Notes: generated by a model not told the origin, from the letters alone. DNA of 64,000 nucleotides from a virus (IMGVR_UViG_3300020147_000009:530-64529), one strand, 5' to 3'. Shown: positions 5,974 through 47,378, numbered from the stretch's first letter. A program made the numbers and translations.

Positions 5974-6408
5974 TTATTCAAGATAGCTGATTGGTTTATT
6001 AGTATAGATTGCATATTCAATCTCAGATTGGGTTGAGGAACCAATATACCCATCCTTGTTAATCACATAGACTTCATCAGCTAAATCGATTTTCCTCTTA
6101 TGTAGGTTATCCAATGCTTCCTTCTCAGATAAAGTAATAGTATCATTATCTGTATGCATGAAGAAACCAACTGACAAAACAATATATCCTTTAAGAGTGA
6201 ATTCTTTATTAGCCTTATAGAATTCATCCTTGAATTTTGTTGAACCACATAAACAAACAACTTTTACATCTTTTAGTCTCTTAGCTGTATCATGAACAGC
6301 TTTAAGAGAACCATCAAACTTATGTAGAAGCTGAGGAAAATCATCATCAACTATAGCTGTCTGTCTTACGTTTAAACCGTCTTCAATTGCATTTATAAAT
6401 TTCTTCAT
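5974..6408 (-). CDS. nucleoside 2-deoxyribosyltransferase-like (NDT/DNPH1-like Rossmann) protein
   Basis: N-terminal VVCLCGSTKF and C-terminal GSSTQSEIEYAIYTNKPISYL match the NDT-family pattern (DxGTxxExGyA...KPv). Confidence 0.5.
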   Translation of the reverse strand: MKKFINAIEDGLNVRQTAIVDDDFPQLLHKFDGSLKAVHDTAKRLKDVKVVCLCGSTKFKDEFYKANKEFTLKGYIVLSVGFFMHTDNDTITLSEKEALDNLHKRKIDLADEVYVINKDGYIGSSTQSEIEYAIYTNKPISYLE

Positions 6409-7292
6409 TAAAAATCCTCTACACTTGCTATTAGATTATTACAACGCTTACCAGCAAGATAAGTCCAAAGCTTCATTCTATCAAACTTAGTCTCTCTTGG
6501 CTTAGCATACTCCGTTAAGATTAGTTCCTCAATATCAGCAGGTATATAGTCAAAATTCATCAATGTTTGGTTTCTTGTGTAGTTCCTTCTTTCTTCATCA
6601 TTTACACAAGCCTCAATTCCCTTCTCGAGAAACTCATCCAATCTGTTTTGATAGATTGCTTTTGCTCTGCCGTTAGGCTTAGTAAACCAATCATCAGCCA
6701 TATAGATTGATGGAATACCATCCTTCTTCTGACCTTTCACCGTACATTCATTGAGATATTCTTTTACCTCTTTAATAGACTTCTTAATCATCTTCTTTGT
6801 ACTAGGACTATATTGCTCAACCTTATCATACTTCTGAAGTTGAGACATGTCGTTATCTGAAGAGATAATCATAACCGGTTCTGTAGTACCAAATACACCA
6901 ATACGAGCTTTCTTTGTAAGAATAGCAATGATGTCATCAGCCTCACAACCTTCCAGTTGTATAACCTTATATGGGGTAAATTTGATTAACTCTTGTCTGA
7001 TGATATCCATACATTGGAATATCATGTCCCAATCTAGGTCTGATTCTGCTCTACCAGCTCCTCTACTCCATTTATAGTATGGAAAATATTTCTTTCTCCA
7101 ATAGTTTCTACCATCACAAGCAATTACAACTTCACCGAACTTCGCTGAGTGTTTCTTCTTATGTGACAATATACTACTTAATACAATATGTCTTACAAGA
7201 CCAATAGCATCATCAATCTTCTTGCCTTTGATTTCCTTTTGGAGAACAAAGACACCAGCGATGACGATGCCACTGTAGTCAATAATTATCAT
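6408..7292 (-). CDS. rnh: RNase H / 5'-3' flap exonuclease (T4 rnh-like)
   Basis: FEN/5'-3' exonuclease motifs incl. GCEADDIIA; length 294 aa similar to T4 RNase H. Confidence 0.85.
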   Translation of the reverse strand: MIIIDYSGIVIAGVFVLQKEIKGKKIDDAIGLVRHIVLSSILSHKKKHSAKFGEVVIACDGRNYWRKKYFPYYKWSRGAGRAESDLDWDMIFQCMDIIRQELIKFTPYKVIQLEGCEADDIIAILTKKARIGVFGTTEPVMIISSDNDMSQLQKYDKVEQYSPSTKKMIKKSIKEVKEYLNECTVKGQKKDGIPSIYMADDWFTKPNGRAKAIYQNRLDEFLEKGIEACVNDEERRNYTRNQTLMNFDYIPADIEELILTEYAKPRETKFDRMKLWTYLAGKRCNNLIASVEDF

Positions 7293-8888: not shown

Positions 8889-9314
8889 CTAATAACCCCA
8901 TTCGTCTCTCCAAGAATCACCTGAATCTCTGTACGCATAATCAACAAAGGTATAATAGTCTCTTAAGCAATCAGTCTCATCATATAACTCACTTGATAAG
9001 ATTAATAAAACACAGTCTGATGATATCTCAGATATTTCAATCCAATATAGTTTATCAATATCTAAACCAATATTGGGTTCGTTTAAGTAGAAAGATTCAA
9101 CCTTTGTTCCAGAATCAGTGTAAATCTTACATGAACCTGAAACAGCAATAAAAACCTGTCTACATTTCTTATGAGCCACAAACCCATGAGATTTTACTCC
9201 TCTTAGGTATTGAACTCTTTTTATATCAAATGGAAAGCTGATGTTAGGTTCCAACATTGTGAAGGAACCTAACTCATCAACAAACTCATCTAATTTTAAA
9301 ATATTCACACTCAT
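8889..9314 (-). CDS. cupin-fold sugar-nucleotide 3,4-ketoisomerase-like protein (FdtA/WxcM-like)
   Basis: FDIKRVQYLRGVKSHGFVAHKKCRQVFIAVSGS resembles the conserved core of the FdtA/WxcM cupin family. Confidence 0.45.
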   Translation of the reverse strand: MSVNILKLDEFVDELGSFTMLEPNISFPFDIKRVQYLRGVKSHGFVAHKKCRQVFIAVSGSCKIYTDSGTKVESFYLNEPNIGLDIDKLYWIEISEISSDCVLLILSSELYDETDCLRDYYTFVDYAYRDSGDSWRDEWGY

Positions 9315-10049
9315 TTAGAATTGTCTTGTTGATAGCTTCTTTTGGCTTGATACGTAATAATCTTCAATGAATTTGAAGTGTCTTTCATAGACATGAAGAG
9401 ACGAAGCTGACCAAATGATATCACCAACATCAACAAACAAATCTGCTGCTAACATCTTTAAAACATAACTTTGCCAAGCTCTGTCGTTCTTATATCCAAA
9501 TACTGCGTCGTTACTTCTCATCTTTACGTGGGCGTGAATCTTACCACCACGAATCAAATATGTTACAGAATCAGTGCAGATAAAGTCAGACATTCCGTCT
9601 TTATTATAATCTTTATGCATACTTGGACGAGTGTAAATCATATTTGCTCTACGAGAATATGGATTCTTCTTGAGTTCAGCCAAAACATTTTCGTATTGGT
9701 TTCCATTTTCTTCTGAGTAAATACACCAACCATAGTTAGAGTTAATCATCCCTGCTGAGCTTGCTACAGCCTTCCAGATTTCTGGAGCACCACCTGGGAT
9801 ATCAGCAACAAATCTTGATTTAGACTTATACCATTGAACTTCACGTTCAACATAGTCCCAATTAACTTCACCAAAAATGGATTCTTCAGAAGCTAAGAAA
9901 GTACAACCAACTAACTCAACCATCTTAACGCCGGATTTATCAATTACAAAATTACCAGCTCTATATCTTTTAGCTAAGGACTCCCTAATATATTCAATAT
10001 TATGGTATTCTTTAATAGTACCAAATTCATGATTATTTGCATTAATCAT
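9315..10049 (-). CDS. 42: dCMP hydroxymethylase (T4 gene 42 homolog)
   Basis: Strong collinear similarity to T4 gp42 (VDKSGVKMVEL, YKSKSRFV, EIWKAVASS, INSNYGW, NPYSRRANMIYTRPSM, DYNKDGMSDFICT, MRSNDAVFG); 244 aa vs 246. Confidence 0.9.
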   Translation of the reverse strand: MINANNHEFGTIKEYHNIEYIRESLAKRYRAGNFVIDKSGVKMVELVGCTFLASEESIFGEVNWDYVEREVQWYKSKSRFVADIPGGAPEIWKAVASSAGMINSNYGWCIYSEENGNQYENVLAELKKNPYSRRANMIYTRPSMHKDYNKDGMSDFICTDSVTYLIRGGKIHAHVKMRSNDAVFGYKNDRAWQSYVLKMLAADLFVDVGDIIWSASSLHVYERHFKFIEDYYVSSQKKLSTRQF

Positions 10050-11467: not shown

Positions 11468-11737
11468 TTAGAATAGTTTTGGTCTATTAGCTAGTCTTAT
11501 AAGTATCTCACCATGGCATCTATTTGGATAACAGTGGCAACCTAAAACTTTACCTCTGAGCTCTTCTATATCAGCCATTAATTCCGGATTATTTCTAATC
11601 CATACAGAATATTTATATATTACTTCAGCTCTAGTTCCATCTTCTCCTATTTTAAATGGGTTTCCCCACTTAGAAGGTCTTCCTATATAGACATCATACT
11701 TGTCCTTCTTACAATGGACTAGCAGTTGTTTCTCCAT
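11468..11737 (-). CDS. DUF4326-family protein
   Basis: YDVYIGRPSKWGNPF...LGCHCYPNRCHGEIL matches the conserved DUF4326 signature. Confidence 0.55.
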   Translation of the reverse strand: MEKQLLVHCKKDKYDVYIGRPSKWGNPFKIGEDGTRAEVIYKYSVWIRNNPELMADIEELRGKVLGCHCYPNRCHGEILIRLANRPKLF

Positions 11738-12236
11738 TTTTCTCTTTCCAAAATGGCTTCAATTCATCTCTTACTTCAGTCATGATTTGACCTAATAGAT
11801 TCAAACCTTTCCATTTTGTTGGGTCACCTACATCTGGATGGTCTTCACCCATTCCAATTCCCCAGATTCTATCAAACGGAGAAGCCTCAGCTAATCGAGT
11901 ATCCATACTAATAAGAATGAGATAGTTTAGAAGGTTCTCATTCTGTTTAAATCTTTCAAGAGTAATTCTTTTTACAATTGGATATCTATAGTCTTTCCAC
12001 TTATCTTCATCGAAGTTTCTAACTTCTCTACCCAAGTCCTTGTGTAGACTTGGGTTTGATGTTGACATTATCTTTGCGGCAGTTTCAAGGTCACCCATGA
12101 GCATTGCTTTATAATACATCATAGCTTGCTCACCACAACAAAACTTTACTCCGTCAATAATAAAGTCATTCATGTGCCAATTAGATATCTTTTCCTTCCA
12201 GAAGAAGGTGTAACCATTAATTCTTTTCATTGACAT
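11709..12236 (-). CDS. NADAR / YbiA-like (DUF1768) family protein
   Basis: FFWKEKISNWHMNDFIIDGVKFCCGEQAMMYYKA typical NADAR N-terminal motif; probable start at Met3 (ATGA overlap with nrdA). Confidence 0.65.
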   Translation of the reverse strand: MSMKRINGYTFFWKEKISNWHMNDFIIDGVKFCCGEQAMMYYKAMLMGDLETAAKIMSTSNPSLHKDLGREVRNFDEDKWKDYRYPIVKRITLERFKQNENLLNYLILISMDTRLAEASPFDRIWGIGMGEDHPDVGDPTKWKGLNLLGQIMTEVRDELKPFWKEKNGETTASPL

Positions 12237-15120: not shown

Positions 15121-15509
15121 TATTTTCTCGTGTCATTTAGTGTTTTAGCGGCATCATTGAGAGTTTTTACACCAGATTCTGGTACAAGGCATTGATTATA
15201 AACAGGTTTTTCAACCTCTTTAATAACCGTATTCTCAATGATTTTCTCTCTAGTCTTAAGGTTCTTAAGATTTTCTTCAAATTTATCAGAAGCACTAGCA
15301 TATTTATCTAATGTCTCCTTTAGATTCTTAGCGTTCTCATCCTTAAGTTTGATTATTTCTTGTTGGTGTGTTATTACTTCTTTCTGTAGTTTGACTTCAC
15401 CTTCATTCAAGCCAGAAGTTCTACCAGCAAAAAATACAGAAGCAACAATAGCTAAAGTTACAAGAACTATTGCTATGTGTTTACCATATTTAATTAGAAA
15501 TAAAGGCAT
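15120..15509 (-). CDS. i-spanin-like protein (N-terminal TM + coiled coil)
   Basis: Single N-terminal TM (IAIVLVTLAIVASVFFA) then K/E-rich coiled coil; paired with lipoprotein gene. Confidence 0.5.
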   Translation of the reverse strand: MPLFLIKYGKHIAIVLVTLAIVASVFFAGRTSGLNEGEVKLQKEVITHQQEIIKLKDENAKNLKETLDKYASASDKFEENLKNLKTREKIIENTVIKEVEKPVYNQCLVPESGVKTLNDAAKTLNDTRK

Positions 15510-16327
15510 TATCTCTTTTCCTTTAATTGTGATTCAACATCAACTCTATGTTGCTTCCAACCACGGAAGTTCTTGATGAACTTATTTGGTTTTACAGCCT
15601 TAGCAGGATGTTCAGTTGGAGAAGCGTGAATAGGAACCGAACCAACCAATCTGTTATACAACTCAATATCTTTATCAATTGAAGGAGTCTTACCATCATG
15701 AGTTAGATAAGAAACTCTAGCACAACGAGCTGTTGATAACATCATACATTTAGCCATCGGAAGAGTATTTCTTTCTTCTTTACTTACATATGGAAGATGG
15801 TAGTGAGATACCACTGGATTTGATGCATCTATTGCTTTCTTCATTTCAATAGCAAGTTCTCTGATTTCAGGTTGGGCATCCTTATGGTCTCGTAGAGAAT
15901 CCCAATTATCAGTTTCAGTTGCCGTCATAACAACAGAAATATATTGCCAAGGTTCCAATAATCTATTTAGAGTTTGTTTATGTGGTTTAGCAACTACATT
16001 AGCTAACCAAACAAAAGAACAAACTGCTTTACCTGTGAAAGACCAAATAAATTTAGTAAATTTAAGCTTAAATCCTGTCAATTCATGAGCTGCCTGCATT
16101 CCTGCTTGATTTGCACCCCAATGGATTGGACCTGCTGGGTCGTTCCAAACCTGTTTCAAAAACGTCTTAATAGGAATTGCTCTTGAACTTGAAGCATTAC
16201 GGGAAAACACTCTGTGAGTCATGAACTCAGCATGAATGCTCCTCCAATACTTAAGTTGATACGTTGTAAGACGAACTCCGTTGTAAGGGTTGATACTGTC
16301 TTCAATAATCTTTACTTCACAAGCCAT
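15509..16327 (-). CDS. thyX: flavin-dependent thymidylate synthase ThyX
   Basis: ThyX signature THRVFSRNASSSRAIP (RHRx7S-type). Confidence 0.85.
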   Translation of the reverse strand: MACEVKIIEDSINPYNGVRLTTYQLKYWRSIHAEFMTHRVFSRNASSSRAIPIKTFLKQVWNDPAGPIHWGANQAGMQAAHELTGFKLKFTKFIWSFTGKAVCSFVWLANVVAKPHKQTLNRLLEPWQYISVVMTATETDNWDSLRDHKDAQPEIRELAIEMKKAIDASNPVVSHYHLPYVSKEERNTLPMAKCMMLSTARCARVSYLTHDGKTPSIDKDIELYNRLVGSVPIHASPTEHPAKAVKPNKFIKNFRGWKQHRVDVESQLKEKR

Positions 16328-20099: not shown

Positions 20100-23000
20100 T
20101 TATTTAAATACATGCATTGGGTGTGGTTTATCAACACCAATGTCGTTATCTTTGTGAACAATCTTACCATTTTCCAAATGAATCTTATTACGAATAGTAT
20201 GGGAACCTAAATCTTTTTGAGTTTGGTCGTGTTTAGCATAAATGATATCACCTACTTTTTCATTTGTATGACCTGAACCGACGAAGTATTTATGTTTCCC
20301 TTCTCTATCAGAAACAACATGAACAGTCATCTTATCGTTACCCCACGTATCATGGATATCTTTCAATGAAGACTTGTTTTTGTCATGTAGAATTCTTGAA
20401 GCTGGAAGAGTTGACCTATAATGAGCCTTAGCTTCTTCGTTGATGTCAATCGTATAGTCTTCAAATACAATTTCGATATCTTGATTTTCTTCAAGACTAT
20501 CCCATTCCTTGATGGCATCTGATGCTGACTCAAAATATACTGAAATTACTTCGTCACCAGATTTAAGGCAATATCCAGATTTTGTTTCGATAGTATCTTC
20601 AATGATTTCTGATGTCTTTTCATTTAAATATTCTGAGAATTTGAATGATTTCATTTCTTCTACTTTTTCATTTAATCCACCAATTACTGGGATATCATGT
20701 CCTAGTTTCTTGATGTGTGATTTGGCCTTACCGATGTTTGAATTGTGAACGACAACCTTACCATTCTTAATATCAGCATTAATGTCATTATTTGCTAGAG
20801 ATTGAAGGATATGGTCATGTTCCGTATTTTCATCTATAATCATATCATTTTCATAGTCTTCATGTACAATTTTTATTCCCTTTTTCTCATGGTCCGACAT
20901 ATTTCTCCATGTTGTCATAGCTGAATCAGCTGAATCATGTCTTTTAGAAACATATTTTCCATCTTTTTTCAGATAATGACCCTTACCAGAATATGAATGT
21001 CCTGCATTTGAAACAAGAGAATTATGAGCTGCATGATTTTCAGATGAAGGTGATTCTTCTAATGTTGTTTCTTCATTCATTCTTCTAATGTGATTAAATG
21101 ATGAAATGATTCTTCCATTAGATTCAACAGTTTTTATAGTGGAACTACTGCCATCTTTAAAATAGAATTCGTGATGTGTGCCTGTTTTTTGTTTAATCTT
21201 TGGTTCAATAGCATCCTTCTTAAGAATACCCAAAACATGGTTATGAGCAGCATATACACTCTTGTGCTTTGTCATATCCCATTTAATGTTTGTTTCCCCT
21301 TTACCATCTGAATCATGTAAAATCTTATTTCCGTCAACTTCATTCATTGATTCATTTATAGGTAAAGATTCTTCCTTAAGTTGTTCAATATGCTCAGCGC
21401 CATGAACTTTGTAACCATACTTCTTGTAGTGCTTCTTAGCTATTTCAACCGCAGCTTCCTTTGAAGAAGCTTTCACTTTAGCTCTTCTTTCTTTTTGTAC
21501 TTTTCTTTGTATAACAGAAGGATGGTCCGGTTCAGAAACTGTTACAATAACTCTATGATATTCTTCGTTCATATTTAACTCTATTGACTCGTTTAATTTT
21601 CTATCTTTAAACTCTTGAATTTTCTGTTTAATATTTCTTTGACCAGCCCTTGCGTGAATTCCTTTGTGTTTCCATACACCATCTTCTCCCTTATGGAAGT
21701 CACCTACCATATGAGTTGTCTTATTACCACCACTTCCAATACCCATATGTCTCCAAGCTAAAACAGCGTGGTTTCCATCAGCAGAAATATGAGAATGTTC
21801 AATTCCGCCAATATATCCAAATTTATTAGTCTTACGATAATCTCGATTTATTTCCTTGTGAATCTTTCCATGACTCTCAATATCTGTGTTATACCCATCC
21901 TTCTTGGCTTCGTCAAGAGATTCCTTAATAGGTCTATGGGTAAAGATTAATTTCTGATGTTTATCACCATGTTCATGTTCTAGGTGTACAGAAGTACCAT
22001 CCGGATGGTGCATTGAGTCTGAATGTGTTATCATTGATTCAGAACTATGTCTTATATATAGACTTTTCCTGTCTTGTCCCCAACCACGAGGGTGTTGGAA
22101 GCCATGCTTTGCAAGATGGTCATAAATCTTCTGGTGAGAAACATCTTTAGAAACATGGACAACCTTATGATTTGGAATAGCTTGTCCAGTCAAACGATTT
22201 ATGTATGGGTGAGCATCTGTACCCTTCAAATTCTTTTGAGTGTTTTTGATATGCTTATCCATACCAGATAAGGATTTACCTTCATCAAGCTCAGTTGACT
22301 CGCCATAGATACGTTTCTCTCTTTGCTTAGCAAGTTCTGCTGCTAAATTTTGTGTATCTTTTGATGCCTTAACAGAATGCTTATAGTGATTTTCTAAGTA
22401 ATCATCCAACCATTTCTTGCGTTCAGCTGGAGACAAATGACTTGGTGCTTCAGGAACAACACCTTCATGAAGTTCAGGTTTATATTCCCTTTTGAACTTA
22501 GAAAAATCTTTGGCAATGTATTCATGGTCATCTTCTCTACCTTTAAGATGCTTTCCACGATTAGAATCCAAATAATGTTTAATTGTTACATTAGGATTCT
22601 TTACGTCTTTAAGATGTCCTGCCTCACCAACTACTTTCTTTACTTTAGCATGAGTTTTGGAATAGTTTTCATCAGCGTTTTCTGAATGAGTCCCATGGTA
22701 ACCATATCCTTCATTACCAGTTTTAACAGCTTCATCCAACAATTCTTCATTTAGTTTTTTCCAACCTGGCATATATTCTGCGGATTTATTATGTCTTTTA
22801 ATTATAGCTTTATGTAAATCAGATATATTCTCAGATGACTTAACCTTACTCCATTTCACTGGAAGATGTATTCTTTGTTGATATCCTTGTCGAAGAGTAT
22901 GCACACCATCCTCATGTGTTATTCTATATGGACGGTCTTTACCGCTTTTATGGTGAATAACCGTATCTCCTCTATCTTTATAGATATTGTATTCTTTTTT

Positions 23001-23420
23001 TAGTTCATCCTCATGATTTACTTCTTCTATCAATGATTCTTCTTTTAATTTAGGAAGCTCGTCATGATAAATATAACCTTCACCTGCATTTTTATTCCAA
23101 GTTCCTATGGTTCCCTTTTTAGTATGGGTTGCATTATTACCAGAAACGTATCCACCAAGAGATTCTGCCTTTTTCTTCCACTCAGATTTGTCTTGGAACA
23201 ATTCTTTATATTTTGAACCCTCTTTAATAGGAATTTCATCCTTACGCTTTTGTTCTTCATGGTCATTTTCACCATTATGAACAACTATACCAGATTCTCT
23301 ATTAGCACCAACCTTAATCTCACCAGAAGCAATCTTCTTTTTAGTTTCTATCTGCTTTAGTTTAGTTGCCAGAATCTTATGACCGCGGGATTCTAGAATG
23401 TCAGTTAATTTCTTTGCCAT
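20100..23420 (-). CDS. giant hydrophilic His/Lys/Asp/Gly-rich protein (1106 aa), function unknown
   Basis: Uninterrupted 3.3-kb ORF; recurring H-x-DG / GxH / KH segments; translationally coupled to upstream 706-aa gene. Confidence 0.7.
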   Translation of the reverse strand: MAKKLTDILESRGHKILATKLKQIETKKKIASGEIKVGANRESGIVVHNGENDHEEQKRKDEIPIKEGSKYKELFQDKSEWKKKAESLGGYVSGNNATHTKKGTIGTWNKNAGEGYIYHDELPKLKEESLIEEVNHEDELKKEYNIYKDRGDTVIHHKSGKDRPYRITHEDGVHTLRQGYQQRIHLPVKWSKVKSSENISDLHKAIIKRHNKSAEYMPGWKKLNEELLDEAVKTGNEGYGYHGTHSENADENYSKTHAKVKKVVGEAGHLKDVKNPNVTIKHYLDSNRGKHLKGREDDHEYIAKDFSKFKREYKPELHEGVVPEAPSHLSPAERKKWLDDYLENHYKHSVKASKDTQNLAAELAKQREKRIYGESTELDEGKSLSGMDKHIKNTQKNLKGTDAHPYINRLTGQAIPNHKVVHVSKDVSHQKIYDHLAKHGFQHPRGWGQDRKSLYIRHSSESMITHSDSMHHPDGTSVHLEHEHGDKHQKLIFTHRPIKESLDEAKKDGYNTDIESHGKIHKEINRDYRKTNKFGYIGGIEHSHISADGNHAVLAWRHMGIGSGGNKTTHMVGDFHKGEDGVWKHKGIHARAGQRNIKQKIQEFKDRKLNESIELNMNEEYHRVIVTVSEPDHPSVIQRKVQKERRAKVKASSKEAAVEIAKKHYKKYGYKVHGAEHIEQLKEESLPINESMNEVDGNKILHDSDGKGETNIKWDMTKHKSVYAAHNHVLGILKKDAIEPKIKQKTGTHHEFYFKDGSSSTIKTVESNGRIISSFNHIRRMNEETTLEESPSSENHAAHNSLVSNAGHSYSGKGHYLKKDGKYVSKRHDSADSAMTTWRNMSDHEKKGIKIVHEDYENDMIIDENTEHDHILQSLANNDINADIKNGKVVVHNSNIGKAKSHIKKLGHDIPVIGGLNEKVEEMKSFKFSEYLNEKTSEIIEDTIETKSGYCLKSGDEVISVYFESASDAIKEWDSLEENQDIEIVFEDYTIDINEEAKAHYRSTLPASRILHDKNKSSLKDIHDTWGNDKMTVHVVSDREGKHKYFVGSGHTNEKVGDIIYAKHDQTQKDLGSHTIRNKIHLENGKIVHKDNDIGVDKPHPMHVFK

Positions 23421-23421
23421 A

Positions 23422-25542
23422 TTATTGCTCTTTCGTAAATGACTTATGATTCAGTCTGTCTTTTTCTAATTGTTTTACTCTTGGAATAAGCTTAACTGAT
23501 AGTCTATTAAGGATAGCCTTAGACTTAGATAGTCTTTGTTCCAAACGCTCTTTTTCCGCTACCGACAGTTTATCCAAAGGCTTCTTAGCCAATCTTCTCT
23601 TAAGAGCCTTAACAGCAAGTCTTCTAGCTCTCTTGTTGATTGTCTTATTGTCACCCTTACGCTTAAGAGCAAGCTCAAGTCTTCTTTCTCTCTTCGCTTT
23701 AGTTCTTGCGAATCTAATCTTTGCTCTAATTCTTTCTGGTCTTGTCAGAACTTCATTTAATTTCTGAACGGCTTCTTCACTAAGTTCTTCATCTTCTTGG
23801 CTGCAACAAGCAACTTCTTCACCAGTATCAGCATCAATAATTGACAATTCTTCATCGTCATAAGCGTCAAGATAATCTTCTTCAAAGTCTAAGTGAGTAT
23901 TAATAATGCTTTCTAAATCTTCATCAGAAAGAGTATCTTCCAGAGATTGTTCACCATCATCTATAGTGAAGTCATTTAGGCTGTCAGCTTCCTTAATGTA
24001 AACATGCTTTGTTGGCTTATCCTTTTTAGTAAGGTCAACAATTTGAACATGCTTACCTACCTTAACGTCATCCTTAGCTTCCCAATGACCATCATTAATT
24101 TTCTTCATAACATGTTCATGGCTATGTTCTTCAGCTTCATTAATTTTCTTATGATTTTTTAATTCACTGACATGTTTATCCGCATCTTCTTTTGCAGTTT
24201 CACCTTTGAAAGTCTTAACAGTCTTACCGTTAGACATTACTCTATATTCATTATGCCCGATATGTTGTGACCAATGTTCTTCAGATTCTTCCTCAACCAA
24301 GGATTGGTCATAATTAATACCAGCATCCTTAGCAATCTTCAACATATTGTGGAAAGCCTTCCTTGATTTGGAAGTAAGCTTGATTGTTTTTGCTCTCGTT
24401 AAAGCATCATTTACTAACTCTTCTGGGCTCATGCCTCTAACGGCTTCCCCAAAGGTGTTAGCGATAATTACTGCTATCTTTTGTTTGTCAGAAGAATTAG
24501 CGCTCATTTCTATTAGTTCCTTAATGTAGGAGTGATTCTCTATTTGGTTTATATTTTCCAATAAAGAATACGCCTTCTCAACACATTCTTTATTAAATGT
24601 TACGAAATACTTATTTATATTTATAAAAGATGAAACAAGGGCCAGTTTATCCTTGAATTCCCCATTGATGTATGATTCATTGGTCTTTCTGAAAGATTCT
24701 TGAACCTCAACTGGCAAAGATTCAATATTGAAATATTTAGGATGATATTCTGATTTGGAAATTTTAACCTTATCCGGCCATTTCTTACTAATGACTCCGT
24801 CTTCAGTAATTACAGTCAGATAATTTGAACCAATATCTAGGACTTCATATATACCTTTATCATCCTCTACGATATCATCAACCTTGTAAAGTTTTCCTTG
24901 ATAGAAAGCTTCTCTTTCTGGTGCTATTTCAAGTTTAATTTGTTCTTGTATTGATGTTATCCCAAGACCGTTCTGGACGTCACTGAAATATCTCTTAGCA
25001 TCGAATAATGAAAGACTTTTTGGGATGCATTTTTTAAATGATTCGAAGTCTGATTTCCTGGCAAACTCCCTCATCTTTGTTCCGGAAATACCAGAAATTG
25101 ATTCAGAATCTGGGTCTCTGTCTCCAACAGAAACTACCTTTATTGAATCATATTGGTATGATTTACCATTATATTTATTCAGTCTATCCTCATATTCAGC
25201 TACCCTATCAGAGCCGGCTACCATGATGATATTCTTATATTTTCTATTGAGTCTACCAACGAAATGCATGAACGATGGAAGTTCATCAGTCGCTGGAATG
25301 AAATTAGTGCCTTTGGAAATTTTCTTTGCCCAGTAGAGTCTTTTTTCTACTGATAGAGGATTCTTATCTGAATCTTGAGATTTACTAAGAACTATTACAT
25401 GGTCTGCTTCAAGAGAAGCAGCAATTGATTTGACTTTATTTGTTAATAAGTCATGACCGGAAGTATAAGGATTGAATCTACCGAATGCAAATACTACTGT
25501 TGACTTTGGTAGCTTACGCACCAAGGTTTTAAAAGTTTTCAT
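23422..25542 (-). CDS. multidomain protein: N-terminal cytidylyltransferase-like nucleotidyltransferase domain, acidic central region, highly basic C-terminal tail (706 aa)
   Basis: VVFAFGRFNPYTSGHDLL = (G/T)xFxPxTxGH HIGH-type nucleotidyltransferase motif (TagD/PPAT/NMNAT-like); DE-rich stretch ~residues 520-590; C-term RKRERRLELALKRKG...KRRLAKK. Confidence 0.65.
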   Translation of the reverse strand: MKTFKTLVRKLPKSTVVFAFGRFNPYTSGHDLLTNKVKSIAASLEADHVIVLSKSQDSDKNPLSVEKRLYWAKKISKGTNFIPATDELPSFMHFVGRLNRKYKNIIMVAGSDRVAEYEDRLNKYNGKSYQYDSIKVVSVGDRDPDSESISGISGTKMREFARKSDFESFKKCIPKSLSLFDAKRYFSDVQNGLGITSIQEQIKLEIAPEREAFYQGKLYKVDDIVEDDKGIYEVLDIGSNYLTVITEDGVISKKWPDKVKISKSEYHPKYFNIESLPVEVQESFRKTNESYINGEFKDKLALVSSFININKYFVTFNKECVEKAYSLLENINQIENHSYIKELIEMSANSSDKQKIAVIIANTFGEAVRGMSPEELVNDALTRAKTIKLTSKSRKAFHNMLKIAKDAGINYDQSLVEEESEEHWSQHIGHNEYRVMSNGKTVKTFKGETAKEDADKHVSELKNHKKINEAEEHSHEHVMKKINDGHWEAKDDVKVGKHVQIVDLTKKDKPTKHVYIKEADSLNDFTIDDGEQSLEDTLSDEDLESIINTHLDFEEDYLDAYDDEELSIIDADTGEEVACCSQEDEELSEEAVQKLNEVLTRPERIRAKIRFARTKAKRERRLELALKRKGDNKTINKRARRLAVKALKRRLAKKPLDKLSVAEKERLEQRLSKSKAILNRLSVKLIPRVKQLEKDRLNHKSFTKEQ

Positions 25543-30579: not shown

Positions 30580-30930
30580 TTAATGGACAGATTTTCCTTC
30601 AGCCATATTTTCATTTCTTAGGTCAATCACTTCTTTTGTTTCCATGTTATCGTCGGTAAATACAACTACTTTTGGGGATATATCAGGAAATAGAGTTGAA
30701 GCATAGATGAAGGTTATCTTAGCACATTGCTTAGGGTCTTCATGGGACAGGTCGGTGACCAATGTGACGTTATAATCTGAATTATCAAATGAAGGTAAAA
30801 ATATGAAGAGGAGAGCTCGGTAATAAGAACCTCCATCTTCGGTTTCCATATGTTCTAGGTGAATCTGTACTTGCTCTGGTTCAAAAACTCCCCAATTAGG
30901 GATAAAATCTACTTTCTTTATATCAGTCAT
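30580..30930 (-). CDS. hypothetical protein (116 aa)
   Basis: ORF. Confidence 0.5.
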   Translation of the reverse strand: MTDIKKVDFIPNWGVFEPEQVQIHLEHMETEDGGSYYRALLFIFLPSFDNSDYNVTLVTDLSHEDPKQCAKITFIYASTLFPDISPKVVVFTDDNMETKEVIDLRNENMAEGKSVH

Positions 30931-31414
30931 TAATATCTACTACATCCCAGTTCAAAATAACGGATTGGACTTCATTAAAGAATCCATCCAAATTATCAAT
31001 TACTTCGATTTCTGGTCTAATAATAGATAGCTGTTTAATTACATCAAACTTTCTCTTATATCCAGGATGAACACCGACCACCATTGGCTTATCTGACATG
31101 GCAATCTTACCAAGTTCAAATAAAGTAATAGGACATAGAGTTTCTTCCGGAAACCAGAATGAAACGATGTCAGCAATCTCCAGATTGCAATGTTCCCATT
31201 CAATTTGAATATCACTTTGTTTTGGGTCCATGACATCAAAATCATATCTTCTTGGATTGATGAAAATAGCATCCAGATGGGAGCATCTTTCAATCATTAA
31301 TTCCTGCCAGTCAGGGCAGTTTGAAATTCCTCCAGCCATGAACAAAGAAGGCCTTGTTCTGGATAGTGTTAAAGGAAAATCATTTGGTGCTCGTACAACA
31401 ATTAAATTTGACAT
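30923..31414 (-). CDS. nucleoside 2-deoxyribosyltransferase-like protein (second copy)
   Basis: SLFMAGGI and ITLFELGKIAMSDKPMVV match the NDT pattern (G-T-x-F-E-x-G...KPvv). Confidence 0.55.
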   Translation of the reverse strand: MSNLIVVRAPNDFPLTLSRTRPSLFMAGGISNCPDWQELMIERCSHLDAIFINPRRYDFDVMDPKQSDIQIEWEHCNLEIADIVSFWFPEETLCPITLFELGKIAMSDKPMVVGVHPGYKRKFDVIKQLSIIRPEIEVIDNLDGFFNEVQSVILNWDVVDIND

Positions 31415-33924
31415 TAGAAAAACGCCTTTAGTGATGACTCTTCATGAAGAGACCAACCCATAGAGTCAGTCATTGATTTGACTACATTCACAAAAACTTT
31501 ATCAAACATTGTTTCATAATCAATATACTTATGAAGACCAAATTCAACTGGTAAATCTGTTAAGAATCCAATTACATCTTCTCTAATGGTATTTGGTACC
31601 TTAAGATGGATGAATTTAATCTTATCTCCGTTTGATATTTTCTGTCTTGAAGAATGTAGTTTATATTTATCAACAAGCATATTATATAGAATTGCTGCCC
31701 TCGAGTTAATCGGTGTACCTTTGGTATAACCTGATTTCCCGTTCATATACTTATTGACCTCATTTACACCTCTCGGAAACGCGATATCTTCCGGAGGCAA
31801 TTGATTGAATTCATCTCTATACTTCTTAATGAATCTTCTCAATTCTATATTTGTTCCACTTAGAATAATAGGAACAACTTCTCTTAATTTATCTCTAACC
31901 ACCTTTGGTGTAGATGATTTGATGATATCCAATCCAACAATCTTGATTTTCGGTGTAGCATATTGAACACCTTCAGAGTTATGGACATTGAGAATATATC
32001 TTTTCTTAGCAACGAACAAAGCTGAATCACATAAAGATTCTCTCTTCATGCTCATCTTCTGCTCTCTTGCATTCATGTATGTTGCAAGCTCTTTATAAGA
32101 CTTATCAATGAATGGCTTAAGAACCTTTTCACAGAATTTATCCATGAACTGGATTTTCTCTTCTGTTGTTGGTTCATGAGAAAGAGTTTTAGCCCAATTT
32201 TCAACAACTGTATTAAGGTTCAAATAGTTAGAGTCTGTGTCGATATAGATAACATAATCAACATCAGTCGTGTTATTCATTTTATTCAAATATTCATTGA
32301 ATTTATTAGCAATCCAACGAATAGACAATTGACTAGAAAGTGTAATTCCTTCAGCCATTCTAATATCAAAGTATCTGAATCCTTTGTTACCCAACGCACC
32401 ATAAGCTGAGTTAAGAGCGATTTTCAGAGCTAATTGAAGATTATTTAGACTAGCAATCTTCTTCTCTAATTCTGGGTTTTTTGTCTTTTCGTATTCTTGC
32501 TCGAGCTTGAGCATTTCCTGTTTGTACTTCTTTCTGTCTTTGTACATGCTGTCCATAAGTTCAGCAAGAAAACCCCTAACATCTTTCTTATAGCATATAC
32601 CATTTGCAGTTACCGTTAAGTCCTTATATATTGCCTCTGAAGTATCAATCTTCTTTTCAAGAAAATCATCAACAGAAGCAACGTCTCTATAGTTAAATCC
32701 TTCGAACAAAGTCTCTGGACTGATATTATATTGCATGATAATATGAGGGTACAGACTGTCCAAGTCGAAGCTTGCTACATTCTTGTGCTTACCGACAATT
32801 GGAGGTTTGACGTATGCACCCTCAAAACCCATATCTTGGCGAGAGTGTCTTGCAATCTCACCATAGATGTTCTTCTTTTTCAAATAGTTATAGATAATGG
32901 TTTCCCATACCTTAACTTGACCGAAAATATCCTCATAATTAACCTTTGCCATATAAGCAATAGTCAATTGAAGTTCAATTAATTTCAACTTATCTTCAAG
33001 TTCACTAACAAGAGTTACATCTCGAACGTTATACTCACAAAAAAGTTGCCAATCTTTTTCATAAAACTCTCTAAAGGTTGGATATGGGTTTTCTAACTTA
33101 GTAGAACCCAACTCATATTGAGCAATAGTTGCTAGCTTATAGTTTTCTTGAGGAATCTTGACATACTTCATGTACAAGTCCTGGTAATCCAGAACTGAAA
33201 TACCCATGATTTCAAACGTAGTTTTATCAATCCCGTTGATAGTAACACTACGCAGGTTTATTTTATTCCATGGTGATAGTCTATTAGCATAGTCCGGGTC
33301 ACCAAACACCCAAGTGATTCTGTTAATCAGGTAAGGCAAATCGAAAAATTTAACGTACCAACCTGTAATTACGTCAGGTGCTGACTTGTTCCAGAATTCG
33401 ATGAATTGATTAAGAAGGTCTCGTTCATCAGCACACTGAACAACTCGAATAGACTTATCTTTTGGGATGAATTGTTTTGAAGTGAAAGTAACAATCTTCT
33501 TAGTTATCTTATCCTGAACAGTGATAAGTAAAACCTCATCGGATGGATTGTTTACATCCGGAAAACCTTTGTTAGCTGTAGTTTCAATATCCAGAGTATG
33601 AATCCGAATATGACTAATATCCCAAGGAACTTCTTTTGTATATTTCTCAGAAAGATACTGGTACGACCAAGCATTGTTACCATAAATTTTAAATCCTTCA
33701 ACACCATCATATCTATCAACAAAAGCTTTTGCTTCGTTAATAGTTTCAAATGTCATTGGTTCGATATTTCTACCGTTCAATGACTTATATCCTGTATTTT
33801 TATTCGAATTAATAAAAAGAGTTGGGGAAAACGGAACTTGTCTTCTGAATTGAACTCCGTCTTTATAACCTCTTACAAGGATTTTATTTCCCCATTTTAT
33901 AGAATGGGTGTAAAACTCTGACAT
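31414..33924 (-). CDS. 43: family B DNA polymerase (T4 gp43-like)
   Basis: Exonuclease (DIETT) and polymerase motifs incl. YIDTDS, KxxxNSxYG; 836 aa. Confidence 0.9.
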   Translation of the reverse strand: MSEFYTHSIKWGNKILVRGYKDGVQFRRQVPFSPTLFINSNKNTGYKSLNGRNIEPMTFETINEAKAFVDRYDGVEGFKIYGNNAWSYQYLSEKYTKEVPWDISHIRIHTLDIETTANKGFPDVNNPSDEVLLITVQDKITKKIVTFTSKQFIPKDKSIRVVQCADERDLLNQFIEFWNKSAPDVITGWYVKFFDLPYLINRITWVFGDPDYANRLSPWNKINLRSVTINGIDKTTFEIMGISVLDYQDLYMKYVKIPQENYKLATIAQYELGSTKLENPYPTFREFYEKDWQLFCEYNVRDVTLVSELEDKLKLIELQLTIAYMAKVNYEDIFGQVKVWETIIYNYLKKKNIYGEIARHSRQDMGFEGAYVKPPIVGKHKNVASFDLDSLYPHIIMQYNISPETLFEGFNYRDVASVDDFLEKKIDTSEAIYKDLTVTANGICYKKDVRGFLAELMDSMYKDRKKYKQEMLKLEQEYEKTKNPELEKKIASLNNLQLALKIALNSAYGALGNKGFRYFDIRMAEGITLSSQLSIRWIANKFNEYLNKMNNTTDVDYVIYIDTDSNYLNLNTVVENWAKTLSHEPTTEEKIQFMDKFCEKVLKPFIDKSYKELATYMNAREQKMSMKRESLCDSALFVAKKRYILNVHNSEGVQYATPKIKIVGLDIIKSSTPKVVRDKLREVVPIILSGTNIELRRFIKKYRDEFNQLPPEDIAFPRGVNEVNKYMNGKSGYTKGTPINSRAAILYNMLVDKYKLHSSRQKISNGDKIKFIHLKVPNTIREDVIGFLTDLPVEFGLHKYIDYETMFDKVFVNVVKSMTDSMGWSLHEESSLKAFF

Positions 33925-34421: not shown

Positions 34422-35186
34422 TTATATTTCTACAATCAAGTCTGGATTAAATTCTTTAAGGTTTTCTCGACCATATCCCTTTGGATTGCAGATAACACGA
34501 GTATCTCCAACCATGTAGTCAAAATTACAATGAGTATGTCCATGAATCCAAAGACCTTCCCAACCCATATATTGAGACATCTCAGTACTGAAGTAAGGAG
34601 TGATTAGATTATTCTTGAATTTTTCATGGACAGACCTAATACCCGGACAGAAATGAGTAACAACAACTCTCTTTTGACCTTCAGTCTCTTTTAATGCCCA
34701 TTTAAGAAACTGTTCAAATTCCCTGAATAACTTCTTCGTGTCTTCGATAGTAAAAGCTTCTTCTTGAAATTCATAATAACCAGTAAACTTACCATCCCAT
34801 TTTCTTATACCATGACGTATGTTATAGTCAGTAATTCCACGTTCGCATAATGTATCAATAAGAACTTGTGGCTGTGTAGCTGAAAACAAACTGAAGTCTG
34901 TCCACATGGTGCCACAGATAAAATGCACGTCGTCGATGACCTTTATGTCATTATCAATGTAACCTATATCCTGTAGGTTCTTTCGATGAACCATGAAGTT
35001 TTGTTTATAGTACTCATGATTTCCTGGTACAGTTATAACCGGAACTTCGATGTTGCTAACGAATTGTTCATATAATGAAGGTCTAGATGAGATGTCACCA
35101 GCAAGAACTACAACATCCTCGCCTTTATTATCATAATAGTGGAACTGCCCCTCCAGATGGAGGTCTGACATTATTCTAAGTTTCAT
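34422..35186 (-). CDS. calcineurin-like metallophosphoesterase
   Basis: DLH / GD / GNHE metallophosphatase motifs. Confidence 0.7.
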   Translation of the reverse strand: MKLRIMSDLHLEGQFHYYDNKGEDVVVLAGDISSRPSLYEQFVSNIEVPVITVPGNHEYYKQNFMVHRKNLQDIGYIDNDIKVIDDVHFICGTMWTDFSLFSATQPQVLIDTLCERGITDYNIRHGIRKWDGKFTGYYEFQEEAFTIEDTKKLFREFEQFLKWALKETEGQKRVVVTHFCPGIRSVHEKFKNNLITPYFSTEMSQYMGWEGLWIHGHTHCNFDYMVGDTRVICNPKGYGRENLKEFNPDLIVEI

Positions 35187-35583
35187 TCAATTGTTCCATT
35201 AATAATCGTTTAACTAAAATATTTGGTTGTCTATATCTGTCAGTTTCCATAAATCCAATAGAAATACCAGCCTCAACTACAGCTCCAGACCTGCACATAC
35301 CAGCATGGCAATGAACTATAACATTTGAATGATTATCCAAAGCTGATTTAAGGATATGGACAATCTCTTTTGCTTGTTCTCTGGTGAAGTTTCCTTCATA
35401 ACCTTCTTCATCCTGGTCCCAAAACTTGAATTGATGTATTTCCTTGAATTTGTACTTAGGAAAAGGGAATCCTGACATATTTGGGTCAGTGATTTGAATT
35501 AGAACTGAGTTTGGGCCTGGGTCGTAATGAAACGCTCTTTTGATATTATCATACGAAACGTTTTCAATAAATGGTCTCATCAT
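35176..35583 (-). CDS. Cys-based protein-tyrosine/dual-specificity phosphatase-like protein
   Basis: VHCHAGMCRSG = HCx5R(S) P-loop; ORF track start TTG at 35595, ATG at 35581-35583 preferred. Confidence 0.65.
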   Translation of the reverse strand: MMRPFIENVSYDNIKRAFHYDPGPNSVLIQITDPNMSGFPFPKYKFKEIHQFKFWDQDEEGYEGNFTREQAKEIVHILKSALDNHSNVIVHCHAGMCRSGAVVEAGISIGFMETDRYRQPNILVKRLLMEQLNET

Positions 35584-35711
35584 ATTATTCTTCAACTTCT
35601 TCAGCTATAATATCTTCATCATAGCTATAGTCAAATAATCCTTCTTTCATTTCAACCAATATCTTATCAAAACACTCATCACATTGACAAGTGTCTGAGC
35701 CATCACAAAAC

Positions 35712-35909
35712 TCAGATTGGTCCGTATTGGATGAAATTTGCTCTATTGTCATCATATATTTTTACACATACAACACATTTCAGCCAAACCCTCAAAGATT
35801 TAGCATTGTTGTATGCTATTGTTCCTACCCTTTCAGCTTCGTTAAAATCATCGGTTTCCAATAGCAAAATTGGTTCTTTTCCTGCTGCTTCATAGAAAAC
35901 TTTAATCAT
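35712..35909 (-). CDS. hypothetical protein (65 aa)
   Basis: ORF. Confidence 0.35.
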   Translation of the reverse strand: MIKVFYEAAGKEPILLLETDDFNEAERVGTIAYNNAKSLRVWLKCVVCVKIYDDNRANFIQYGPI

Positions 35910-35945
35910 GATTTATTATAACAAATTTCATAATAAAGATATACA

Positions 35946-36101
35946 TTATTTTTCAGTTTGTTCTTCTGTTGTACCTTTATTTTCAACTTCTGTATCATTT
36001 TTGTCTTTTTTACCGAATATCGCGTCGAAATTATCTGTATAGGCTTTGCTCGGTACTCTTGAGATGATTGAATCTCCGGTTATATCATTCTTTGTTGCCA
36101 T
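35946..36101 (-). CDS. small acidic hypothetical protein (51 aa; ORF track 35946..36134)
   Basis: Internal ATG at 36099-36101 preceded by GGAGAAA SD; longer N-terminus would overlap the terminator hairpin. Confidence 0.35.
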   Translation of the reverse strand: MATKNDITGDSIISRVPSKAYTDNFDAIFGKKDKNDTEVENKGTTEEQTEK

Positions 36102-36110
36102 ATTTTCTCC

Positions 36111-36142
36111 AAAATAAAATGCAACCGGAATCATCCGGTTGC
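36111..36142 (-). terminator. rho-independent terminator (9-bp GC-rich stem GCAACCGGA/TCCGGTTGC, then AUUUUAUUUU on the minus strand)
   Basis: Perfect inverted repeat 36121..36142 with 4-nt loop; plus-strand A-rich run 36111..36120 = U-tract for leftward transcription; downstream of SPFH gene stop. Confidence 0.55.
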
Positions 36143-36172
36143 ATTGTTGTCAGACTTAAATGTAACTACTTT

Positions 36173-36180
36173 TATTTATA
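36173..36180 (-). promoter_or_regulatory. late promoter box TATAAATA located upstream of the terminator hairpin
   Basis: Plus tatttata at 36173..36180. Confidence 0.35.
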
Positions 36181-36182
36181 GG

Positions 36183-37571: not shown

Positions 37572-37603
37572 TGTGTTTTATTTCTCCATAAAATTAAAAT
37601 TAA

Positions 37604-37903
37604 CTACTTTTCTTCTACTACATATTTTCCGGTTTCAATATCAAATCTTTCAACTTTTCCAGTTTCAATATTGAATCGGTCAAATCTTATCCCTAGCATA
37701 TAGGTAACTTTTGCTGGTATTGGACCAGCAAAGATACCGTTAAATTCAGGAATAAAATCCTTTTGACACTTATCACACCACAAGTGTCCTTTGAATTCAG
37801 ACCATTCACATTCATCGTTACCACAACTGCATGGACTGACTTCAAATTCTTTTGGTTTCTGTATATAGAACCAAGTTCTCTTTTCCAACTCAGGCATATT
37901 CAT
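37604..37903 (-). CDS. small zinc-binding protein with tandem 10-aa C-terminal repeat
   Basis: CSCGNDEC...CDKC; RFNIETGKVE / RFDIETGKYV encoded by ~30-bp tandem DNA repeat at 37620..37690. Confidence 0.5.
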   Translation of the reverse strand: MNMPELEKRTWFYIQKPKEFEVSPCSCGNDECEWSEFKGHLWCDKCQKDFIPEFNGIFAGPIPAKVTYMLGIRFDRFNIETGKVERFDIETGKYVVEEK

Positions 37904-39050: not shown

Positions 39051-39107
39051 GATAATCCTTTGATAAGATTATCTCTAAAAGATTCTACTTCCATATAAAC
39101 CAAAATG

Positions 39108-39467
39108 TCATATTACCATTCTGCATATATCGTCATCTGAAAGAATTTCATATTTTACAGGAGTATTGATTTGAGCCTTATCTTTAGCAGAAGATGTCCA
39201 GCAATTTGGTCTATTATGTTCAGATATACCTTTCTCCTGAAAGAAAGTATGGTCTTTAATATCGCCATCAAATAAAATCTTGATGACAACTGATTTACCA
39301 TGGCGAACATGTCTTGCAGCACCTTTAGATTTCTTAGACATTATACGAGTTGCCCACATATAAGCCGTTTTAAAATCTACCGCAGTAGTACCAGGAATAT
39401 AACCTGGCTTGAGGTCTGAAGCTAAAACACCTTTGTATAAAGTAATCATAGAAGAATTATATAACAA
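39108..39467 (-). CDS. hypothetical protein (119 aa)
   Basis: ORF. Confidence 0.45.
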   Translation of the reverse strand: MLYNSSMITLYKGVLASDLKPGYIPGTTAVDFKTAYMWATRIMSKKSKGAARHVRHGKSVVIKILFDGDIKDHTFFQEKGISEHNRPNCWTSSAKDKAQINTPVKYEILSDDDICRMVI

Positions 39468-39573
39468 TTTCGATATTTTGTATAATTATTTTTGTCAAAA
39501 ATAATTTGTACTTTAATTCTAAAAACTGTTATAATAAAACTCTGTTGGTAGCACGGAGTAGATATAGAGACTT

Positions 39574-39741: not shown

Positions 39742-39763
39742 GATATCCCACCCCTATTTTAGA

Positions 39764-40776: not shown

Positions 40777-40808
40777 TATATAAATACCTCATCAATTACG
40801 ATAAGGTC

Positions 40809-47359: not shown

Positions 47360-47378
47360 ATCACAGAAGAGAACTATA

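Follow-up and report, generated by a model that had tools for sequence, protein, structure and literature searches.

The fold class considered here comprises enzymes that cleave off or exchange the base of a nucleotide, and non-catalytic proteins that bind signals made of nucleotides. Both activities are central in the conflicts of phages with their hosts over modified DNA, the depletion of NAD+ and immunity based on cyclic nucleotides. The TIR-DrHyd-SLOG class is established, including its presence in phages (PMC9503650). In that work, Iyer et al. 2022 described viral SLOG domains as mainly YpsA-like, occurring in 31% of jumbo phages and predicted to process ADPr-derived signals, and viral DrHyd domains as being of the ARC type only, with DrHyd under-represented. 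A phage member of the NDT family, DmtZ, was characterised in 2026 as a dAMP N-glycosidase/phosphodeoxyribosyltransferase (PMC12884076).

We analysed a stretch of 64,000 nucleotides of viral DNA (the window), which is a portion of a 124-kb metagenomic contig and for which the original prediction had described multiple Rossmann proteins of the NDT/LOG superfamily. The three ORFs concerned are present, and the Rossmann-like fold class assigned to each of them is correct. Their classification, which we consider solid, is as follows.

5974..6408, minus strand: protein A, 144 aa, putative nucleotide N-glycosidase/transferase with the NDT/DNPH1/MilB fold (DrHyd-type).
30923..31414, minus strand: protein B, 163 aa, member of PF15891 (Nuc_deoxyri_tr2).
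61127..61555, minus strand: protein C, 142 aa, single-domain SLOG protein, YpsA/DprA-like.

The three families are large, mostly viral and experimentally uncharacterised. Our preferred reading, which we hold with moderate confidence, is that A, B and C are independent members of the TIR-DrHyd(NDT)-SLOG class, neither paralogues of one another nor parts of one system, each belonging to a different functional module with a role, a substrate and an activity that are predicted.

For the comparative analysis, ORFs were called (simple calling) in 240 IMG/VR loci fetched for the families of A, B and C, the family member was located with HMMs, and dereplication at 90% identity reduced the loci to 50 for A, 58 for B and 63 for C. 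Neighbours within 6 kb were clustered and Pfam was run on one representative per cluster, on which the gene labels depend. As controls for enrichment we considered the loci of the other two families (121 for A, 113 for B), which were unmatched for genome size or lineage. Conservation was evaluated on alignments of 120 sequences per family.

Homologues at E<=1e-3 numbered 3752 for A, 530 for B (PF15891 being found in all 120 listed) and 838 for C, and the related loci in IMG/VR were at least 523, 235 and at least 554, respectively; the best non-self matches of the three proteins had 55-63% identity. The start codon of each gene overlaps the stop codon of the gene upstream in a TAATG: for A this is a T4-type RNase H (6408..7292), for B the gp43 DNA polymerase (31414..33924) and for C a 50-aa ORF. 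Small size, and nothing else, speaks for regarding the three as chance ORFs or functionless relics, and the probability of this is negligible. In fact, conservation refutes it: the homologues run to hundreds or thousands, have 45-65% identity and keep invariant motifs. The confident AF2 models of A and C and the TAATG coupling to the upstream genes also oppose it.

The description of A, B and C as multiple members of one superfamily held at the level of fold and failed at the level of sequence. Precisely, hhalign gave probabilities of 0.3% for A-B, 0.2% for B-C and 40% for A-C, where the match covered a single C-terminal motif (45 columns), hence no relation between families, and we rejected the three as paralogues. 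We likewise rejected a single linked system on the basis of the co-localisation scan, in which two of the families were within 10 kb of each other in only one of the loci retrieved (L220, in the C set). In the window, A and B are 25 kb apart and B and C 30 kb apart, in different neighbourhoods. A and B are both found in Caulobacter jumbo phages (CcrColossus) and in a 735-kb phage, very large genomes in which they lie tens of kb apart.

The source of the window is supported as a T4-like phage of the hydroxymethylcytosine type. Its DNA polymerase, of gp43 type, has 49% identity to the gp43 of T4-like cyanophages (cyanomyoviruses), and two segments of the window had no counterpart in a near-identity DNA search of 50,697 phage records; the phage is novel. 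The following genes of the window, beyond A, B and C, were used in the analysis.

9315..10049, minus strand: dCMP hydroxymethylase, homologue of T4 gp42 (PDB 1b49, E 1e-79), 2.9 kb from A.
11468..11737, minus strand: DUF4326 gene in the context of A, paired with the NADAR gene.
11709..12236, minus strand: NADAR domain protein; the pair with DUF4326 spans 11468..12236.
63337..63780, minus strand: NUDIX hydrolase (PF00293, 2.5e-8), 1.8 kb from C.

The Asp179 position of dCMP hydroxymethylase determines cytosine specificity, and it is kept in the ORF at 9315..10049 (KND, vs RND in T4). The phage also carries a 5-hmdU DNA kinase domain. We considered the hmU or hypermodified-T phage that this domain raises and rejected it, because the TS-family gene is a gp42-type dCMP hydroxymethylase with Asp179; the premise of an hmC phage, as originally proposed, therefore stands. 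HMMs for NAMPT, PRS and NMNAT found no gene inside the window; a PRS-like and a NAMPT gene sit just outside it. Precisely, past the window end, on the strand of C, there are an AAA_28 protein, a metallophosphatase, a PNKP and an overlapping pair of PRPP-synthetase-like and NAMPT genes; the PRS-like protein has 279 aa (1e-26) and the NAMPT 527 aa (2e-144), both against HMMs derived from neighbours. A PF01467-domain protein of 706 aa (23422..25542) was tried as an NMNAT-like gene and rejected, as it does not resemble the NMNAT-like cluster that neighbours B homologues; it had no relative in the PDB.

For protein A, the following elements were located.

5974..6264, minus strand: core domain, approximately residues 49-144, common to bacterial and viral homologues of about 100 aa.
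6022..6024, minus strand: codon of E129, the putative nucleophile Glu.
6241..6249, minus strand: CGS loop after strand 1.
6265..6408, minus strand: N-terminal two-helix extension, residues 1-48, with the (I/V)VDDDFP motif.
6334..6351, minus strand: codons of the conserved (I/V)VDDDFP motif.

A had been called a clear NDT/DNPH1-like protein, which proved right for the fold and not for the sequence, since this is below the Pfam cut-offs and is without the beta1 Tyr. The best Pfam score was that of PF14359 (DUF4406), 16.9 bits vs a cut-off of 22, the Pfam HMM search gave no match to PF05014, and among the relatives of A there were weak DUF4406 matches only, in 60/120. A search of PDB sequences with A and a profile search with its family returned nothing relevant and no NDT, and NCBIfam had no match for A, B or C. 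The AlphaFold model of A is confident (pLDDT 93.9), and the top Foldseek matches of this model were nearly all NDTs, MilB, DNPH1, YtoQ and 4mcj. The NDT-type Rossmann-like fold is found in this model of A, and membership of the NDT/DNPH1 family is, judging from the model, recognisable by structure only.

In the alignment of 120 sequences the invariant residues were C54, G55 and S56, T71, G74, K96, L99 and D100, H103, Y121, G123, S125 and T126, and E129. The motif GSSTQSEIEYAIY, quoted for A in the original prediction, was found at residues 123-135. The N-terminal extension was present in 29/120 relatives, the short forms being without it. The nucleophile Glu of NDT and DNPH1 lies in the helix after strand 4. 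In the model of A, E129 lies in the helix 124-135, after the strand 112-116, and from this position of the motif, there being no significant alignment, it would be the counterpart of the nucleophile Glu98/Glu104 of NDT/DNPH1. The strand 1 Tyr of the NDT/DNPH1 triad (Tyr7 in LlNDT, Tyr24 in human DNPH1) is absent, its column being occupied by Cys52 in A and by Thr in the short forms. The comparison with human DNPH1 is not significant, agrees only at CGS and places Y24 opposite C52. D100 and H103 of A, invariant in the helix that precedes strand 4, are candidates for the position of the general-acid Asp (Asp72/Asp80, before strand 4), and a basic HKRK helix is also present.

Within the window, A has near it, besides the RNase H, an FdtA-like isomerase, a MazG-like pyrophosphohydrolase, both ribonucleotide reductase subunits, a weak ThyX-like protein and the NADAR/DUF4326 pair. 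Across viruses, its neighbours within 6 kb included a dUTPase (8/50 loci), TS-family genes (6/50), a PAPS-reductase-like gene (5/50), the anaerobic ribonucleotide reductase NrdD (5/50, this label being read from the sequence and not Pfam-scanned) and its activase NrdG (5/50). At least one gene for dUTPase, TS, ThyX or dCMP deaminase was within 6 kb of A in 15/50 loci vs 7/121 of the B and C controls (odds ratio 7, p 5.6e-5), and the long-form relatives that were inspected one by one adjoin PolA, TS and dCMP deaminase (L007), PolA and ThyX (L010) or ThyX (L258). Hence A travels with thymidylate/dUTP genes, as a statistical link.

A is probably an N-glycosidase or a sugar-phosphate transferase that works with this thymidylate/dUTP module. 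It would cleave a phosphorylated pyrimidine (deoxy)nucleotide, or transfer its sugar-phosphate, an activity that we infer from the invariant Glu129, its Ser/Thr neighbours, the DNPH1-like CGS loop and the HKRK helix; the last three of these features suggest that the substrate bears a 5'-phosphate. In this way A may clean up or edit the pool of dUMP, dTMP and (hm)dCMP beside the genes for replication and dNTP synthesis. In human cells, the handling of hm-dUMP is the reaction of DNPH1. Formed by deamination of hm-dCMP, hm-dUMP could be a sensible target of A in an hmC phage. The core family of A is also a housekeeping-looking chromosomal gene in Clostridia, which argues for a role that is not specific to phages.

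A narrower version of these ideas, in line with the original prediction, is that pool editing by A and/or B is specific to hmC: they would hydrolyse canonical dCMP/dUMP or hm-dUMP, so that the modified nucleotide alone enters DNA. The phage does have the gp42 homologue with Asp179 and the MazG-like pyrophosphohydrolase, gp42 is only 2.9 kb away from A, A is associated with pyrimidine dNMP enzymes across viruses, and DmtZ is a case in which a phage making a modified base uses an NDT-family protein to remove a canonical dNMP (PMC12884076). However, TS-family genes, hydroxymethylases included, were near just 6/50 A and 4/58 B loci, Clostridia carry the A core on the chromosome, and the context of B is that of NAD+ salvage and not of pyrimidine metabolism. 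The destruction of dCMP would also be counter-productive, since gp42 uses it as substrate in the T4-type route to hmC. For the purging of canonical dCMP/dUMP the comparative context thus gives limited support, and to A alone, through the pyrimidine dNMP module. As A and B are widespread in phages without a hydroxymethylase in the sampled neighbourhoods, and the A core is found in bacterial chromosomes, the role is not hmC-specific, and we consider the narrower version improbable.

Protein B was presented as a clear NDT-like protein and its sequence bears this out, with a match to PF15891 of 68 bits vs a cut-off of 30 (E 1e-18, model positions 2-105 of 105) and a match to PDB 4mcj (E 1e-6, residues 22-147). 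To our knowledge, PF15891 has no experimentally characterised member and no assigned function. The conserved residues of B are F25, G28 and G29, N53-P54-R55-R56, W73 and E74, E91, and the segment CPITLFELG with E100, in which C94, I96 and L98 are invariant and E100 is conserved in at least 90% of the sequences; the signature PITLxExG is shared with 4mcj, aligned there as spitllemg. The quoted motif ITLFELGKIAM was found at residues 96-106. The presumed catalytic residue maps as follows.

31115..31117, minus strand: codon of E100, the putative nucleophile Glu of B.

On its sequence, B is a genuine member of PF15891 that retains the acidic residues E74, E91 and E100, and its enzymatic activity is predicted.

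In this phage, B is placed between the DNA polymerase and UvsX, away from NAD+ genes; downstream of it there are a 116-aa ORF, then UvsX and then the gp41 helicase, and the order gp43-B-x-UvsX-gp41 is repeated on the contig of the closest relative of B (L257, 63% identity). In other viruses the neighbours were of another kind. NAMPT was within 6 kb in 8/58 loci, a PRPP-synthetase-like gene in 6/58 and an NMNAT-type nucleotidyltransferase in 6/58; any of the three (the last as NMNAT-like) was within this distance in 16/58 B loci vs 2/113 of the A and C controls (odds ratio 21, p 5e-7). NUDIX (10/58), NADAR (5/58) and HD (7/58) genes were also neighbours, the HD label being read from the sequence and not Pfam-scanned. 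The NAD+ genes are co-directional with the B homologues, 1-4 genes off, in several distinct arrangements (NUDIX-NAMPT-x-PRS-B; NUDIX-NMNAT-x-x-B; NADAR-x-x-B-x-HD-PRS; B-x-NAMPT), and the proximity was also seen in independent look-ups. The DUF4326 and NADAR pair of the window recurs adjoining B homologues in other viruses (L120, L143, L171). As a statistical link, B hence travels across viruses with genes for NAD+ salvage and reconstitution, 72% of the B loci being without an NAD+ gene within 6 kb. The phage analysed here itself encodes the PRS-like and NAMPT pair, NUDIX and NADAR.

This context favours NAD+ salvage over hmC chemistry, on which B is unlikely to act; an action in the NAD+/ADP-ribose/ribose-phosphate economy is most likely. 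B would act there on an N-ribosidic bond. It might, for example, free the ribose-5-phosphate of a nucleotide for use in PRPP synthesis, or exchange the nicotinamide base, and in this lineage it may have been relocated beside the replisome genes. A bolder proposal, which we put forward tentatively, is that B-like PF15891 proteins are accessory enzymes of NAD+ reconstitution and that family A is a widespread DNPH1-like sanitiser of pyrimidine dNMPs in phages. In this case, B would supply ribose-5-phosphate to PRS/NAMPT by cleaving NMPs or ADPR-derived nucleotides, or, by analogy with the base exchange of DmtZ, it would put nicotinamide on a ribosyl-phosphate donor, and it would help phages to outrun NAD+-depleting defences. 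Our literature search found nothing that links PF15891 to phage NAD+ reconstitution, no functional study of the DUF4406 or PF15891 families and no NARP paper with a deoxyribosyltransferase.

Protein C had been called LOG/SLOG-like; the SLOG fold was found, and the catalytic Glu of LOG was not. In C, RSGTWATV (within RSGTWATVRYA) holds Thr118, conserved in at least 90% of the sequences, in place of the Glu of the LOG motif PGGxGTxxE, and in the hhalign register the E129 of A is opposite this Thr118. LOG-type hydrolysis by C is therefore unlikely. The conserved Glu that the original prediction called for, a putative nucleophile, is present in A (E129, invariant in 120 sequences) and in B (E100, at least 90%, in the PITLFELG segment shared with 4mcj), and is missing from C considered as a LOG-type hydrolase.

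The AF2 model of C is confident, its fold is SLOG and the nearest solved structure is YpsA (16% identity). G7, T9, G10 and G14 of a Gly-rich loop and G42-A43-D44 are invariant or nearly so; a Gly-rich loop following strand 1 and a G-x-D/E motif following strand 2 reportedly define the YpsA-like SLOG clade. C also has motifs of its own, HHGDC, IHPP and RSGTW. The Pfam SLOG models were below their cut-offs (cpYpsA 17.1 vs 26.2; LDcluster4 13.3 vs 26.3), and YAcAr gave weak matches only, in 15/120 relatives. We know of no established catalytic activity for YpsA/DprA-like forms. No conserved partner of C was found, the top neighbour cluster being present in at most 5/63 loci; the clusters were receiver-like, metallophosphatase, SNF2-like and ParB-methylase-like, the last two labels coming from the sequence and not from a Pfam scan. 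NAD+ genes were near C in 2/63 loci, a weak association; in this phage the strand of C carries the NUDIX gene at 1.8 kb and the PRS-NAMPT pair at about 7 kb from it.

C is most likely a binder of a nucleotide-derived ligand. It would bind a ligand of the ADP-ribose type, and possibly process it by a different chemistry. Against this speak the generally weak association of C with NAD+ genes and the presence of DprA, which binds ssDNA, among its nearest solved relatives. The main rival to this reading is that C is a minimal DprA-like protein that binds ssDNA or mediates recombination, helps to load UvsX/RecA and has no nucleotide ligand. Weak PF02481 matches in 32/120 relatives, the GenBank name 'DprA-like DNA processing chain A' of the relatives in mycobacteriophages and the neighbours found elsewhere (RNase H, helicase, SNF2-like and ParB-methylase-like, the last two read from the sequence) are consistent with it. 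However, every DprA HMM match was under the cut-off (12.4 bits vs 29.6 for DprA/Smf PF02481), the PDB searches with the sequence and with the profile of C gave sub-threshold DprA/ShosA matches only, and the best match was YpsA and not DprA. C is also one domain of 142 aa, without the other domains of full-length DprA, and its strictly conserved Gly-rich and SGTW loops appear to resemble a pocket for phosphate or a small ligand. We thus consider the DprA-like role of C unlikely.

In a counter-defence role, also raised originally, NAD+-derived immune signals, such as the 2'/3' cADPR isomers or His-ADPR, would be sequestered (by a sponge) or cleaved by B and/or C. It is what Iyer et al. 2022 predicted for viral YpsA-like SLOG domains (PMC9503650), and the phage is rich in counter-defence genes, with Acb1 (E 8e-41), NADAR, NUDIX and, beyond the window, the PRS-NAMPT pair; B homologues, moreover, are found among NADAR, NUDIX and NAMPT genes. 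Yet C is nearer to YpsA, ShosA and DprA than to ThsA, it is without the Glu required for glycosidic cleavage of the LOG type, and its neighbourhoods elsewhere consist of replication and early genes with no conserved partner. We consider counter-defence by B and/or C rather unlikely.

The three proteins are new members of known superfamilies and no new kind of system. The families of A and B, in at least 523 and in 235 IMG/VR contigs, nonetheless qualify the statement that viral DrHyd domains are of the ARC type only (PMC9503650), and those of A and C are unrecognised by any Pfam model, yet each is present in more than 500 IMG/VR contigs. A Rossmann-like fold of five strands, the conserved Glu in the helix after strand 4 and the small or hydroxyl residues before it are common to A, B and the NDT/DrHyd enzymes (LlNDT, DNPH1/Rcl, MilB/BlsM, DmtZ); the C-G-S loop after strand 1 of A resembles the FCGS of DNPH1, in an alignment that is not significant. 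A differs from them in being below the Pfam cut-offs, in the Cys/Thr in place of the catalytic Tyr, in the HKRK helix and, in the phage forms, in the N-terminal helical extension with VDDDFP; B differs in belonging to the separate family PF15891 and in its NPRR and W-E motifs. The B homologue PDB 4mcj (BDI_0649 of Parabacteroides distasonis) has PITL(F/L)E(L/M)G in common with B, but it is a bacterial, uncharacterised structural-genomics entry, whereas B is viral.

As for C, it has 16% identity to YpsA, with the YpsA-type Pfam models under cut-off and its own HHGDC, IHPP and RSGTW; compared with the LOG and PpnN phosphoribohydrolases, it has Thr118 at the catalytic Glu of PGGxGTxxE; and compared with DprA/Smf and the antitoxin ShosA it is a bare 142-aa domain, all HMM scores being under cut-off.

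The phage NAD+ reconstitution pathways NARP1 (Adps+Namat) and NARP2 (Nampt+Nmnat) are the systems closest to the context of B, whose homologues are 1-4 genes from genes of the NAMPT/NAPRTase family and from PRPP-synthetase-like, NMNAT-like, NUDIX and NADAR genes. A PRS-like and NAMPT pair is present in this phage, where B however adjoins the DNA polymerase. The NARP1/2/3 pathways, as outlined in published abstracts, have no NDT-like component, and the association of B with NAD+ genes is the leading novel lead of this analysis. The links of B with NAMPT/PRS/NMNAT and of A with dUTPase/thymidylate synthase are concrete hypotheses that are cheap to address biochemically. DmtZ is the precedent for phage use of the fold of A and B on dNMPs (PMC12884076), and confirmation of these links would extend this one experimental precedent for enzymes of the NDT fold in phage nucleotide metabolism.

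The phage encodes gp42, a homologue of the T4-type dCMP hydroxymethylase, and carries candidate modification genes at 43896..48419 and 8889..10049, both on the minus strand, as follows.

43896..44948, minus strand: protein with a 5-hmdU DNA kinase helical domain (PF18723, 1.4e-14)
45319..46026, minus strand: FkbM methyltransferase
46094..47251, minus strand: inositol-3-phosphate synthase-like enzyme (TIGR03450, 2e-89, below the cut-off)
in the 43896..48419 region, minus strand: uncharacterised 346-aa protein
in 8889..10049, minus strand, immediately adjoining gp42: FdtA-like sugar isomerase

Taken together with gp42, these genes suggest an undescribed post-replicative hypermodification in the phage, in which the hypermodified base is possibly hmC and not hmU. 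Two proteins are odd companions, being unexpected in an hmC genome.

42079..42471, minus strand: UDG-superfamily-like protein of 130 aa (borderline, 24.4 bits against a cut-off of 24.3)
15509..16327, minus strand: 272-aa protein whose sole match is a weak C-terminal one to ThyX

The following features concern the putative nucleotide N-glycosidase/transferase (protein A), the PF15891 member encoded before UvsX (protein B) and the YpsA/DprA-like SLOG protein (protein C).

6265..6408, minus strand: N-terminal helical hairpin of protein A (residues 1-48), containing the conserved motif (I/V)VDDDFP
30580..30930, minus strand: 116-aa ORF that shares 8 nt with the end of B
60421..61130, minus strand: two ORFs, of 94 and 142 aa, directly downstream of C

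The hairpin and its motif were found in 29 of 120 relatives of A and are missing from the core forms of about 100 aa; the hairpin might serve as a lid, in oligomerisation or in the binding of a partner. For the 116-aa ORF no match was obtained in Pfam or PHROG, and a relative (L257) has an ORF of about 120 aa in the corresponding position between B and UvsX. Downstream of C, the 94-aa ORF has an N-terminus that resembles a lipoprotein signal with a lipobox (MKKLLVLITSLFLFGCG, judged by eye), and the 142-aa ORF corresponds to phrog_3668 'hydrolase', with a weak PTH2-like match.

Further genes of interest were the following.

34422..42082, minus strand: RNA-repair-like gene set
20100..25542, minus strand: ORFs of 1106 and 706 aa
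50095..50622, minus strand: clear homologue of Acb1, the anti-CBASS cyclic-nucleotide phosphodiesterase (PF23474, E 8e-41)
11468..12236, minus strand: DUF4326 (89 aa) and NADAR domain pair

The RNA-repair-like set comprises a metallophosphatase, a dual-specificity phosphatase, an SPFH/band-7 protein and two RNA ligases, one of Rnl1 type and the other with a PHA02142 OB domain; a PNKP gene is present just beyond the window. The 1106-aa ORF had no Pfam match, and the 706-aa ORF, with an HxGH nucleotidyltransferase at its N-terminus (PF01467, 2e-6), had no relative in the PDB and did not resemble the NMNAT-like proteins encoded near B homologues.

Other viral contigs (L120, L143, L171) carry the same DUF4326 and NADAR pair, there within a few genes of PF15891 homologues. 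About 3.7-7 kb past the window's right end, a PRPP-synthetase-like gene (279 aa) and a NAMPT/NAPRTase-family gene (527 aa) that overlap each other were found (locus L256, 2874..5286, contig ena:ERZ27257321:k141_670337), followed by PNKP, a metallophosphatase and an AAA_28 protein and continuing into the window's NUDIX gene (63337..63780); this arrangement looks like a NARP-type NAD+ reconstitution island.
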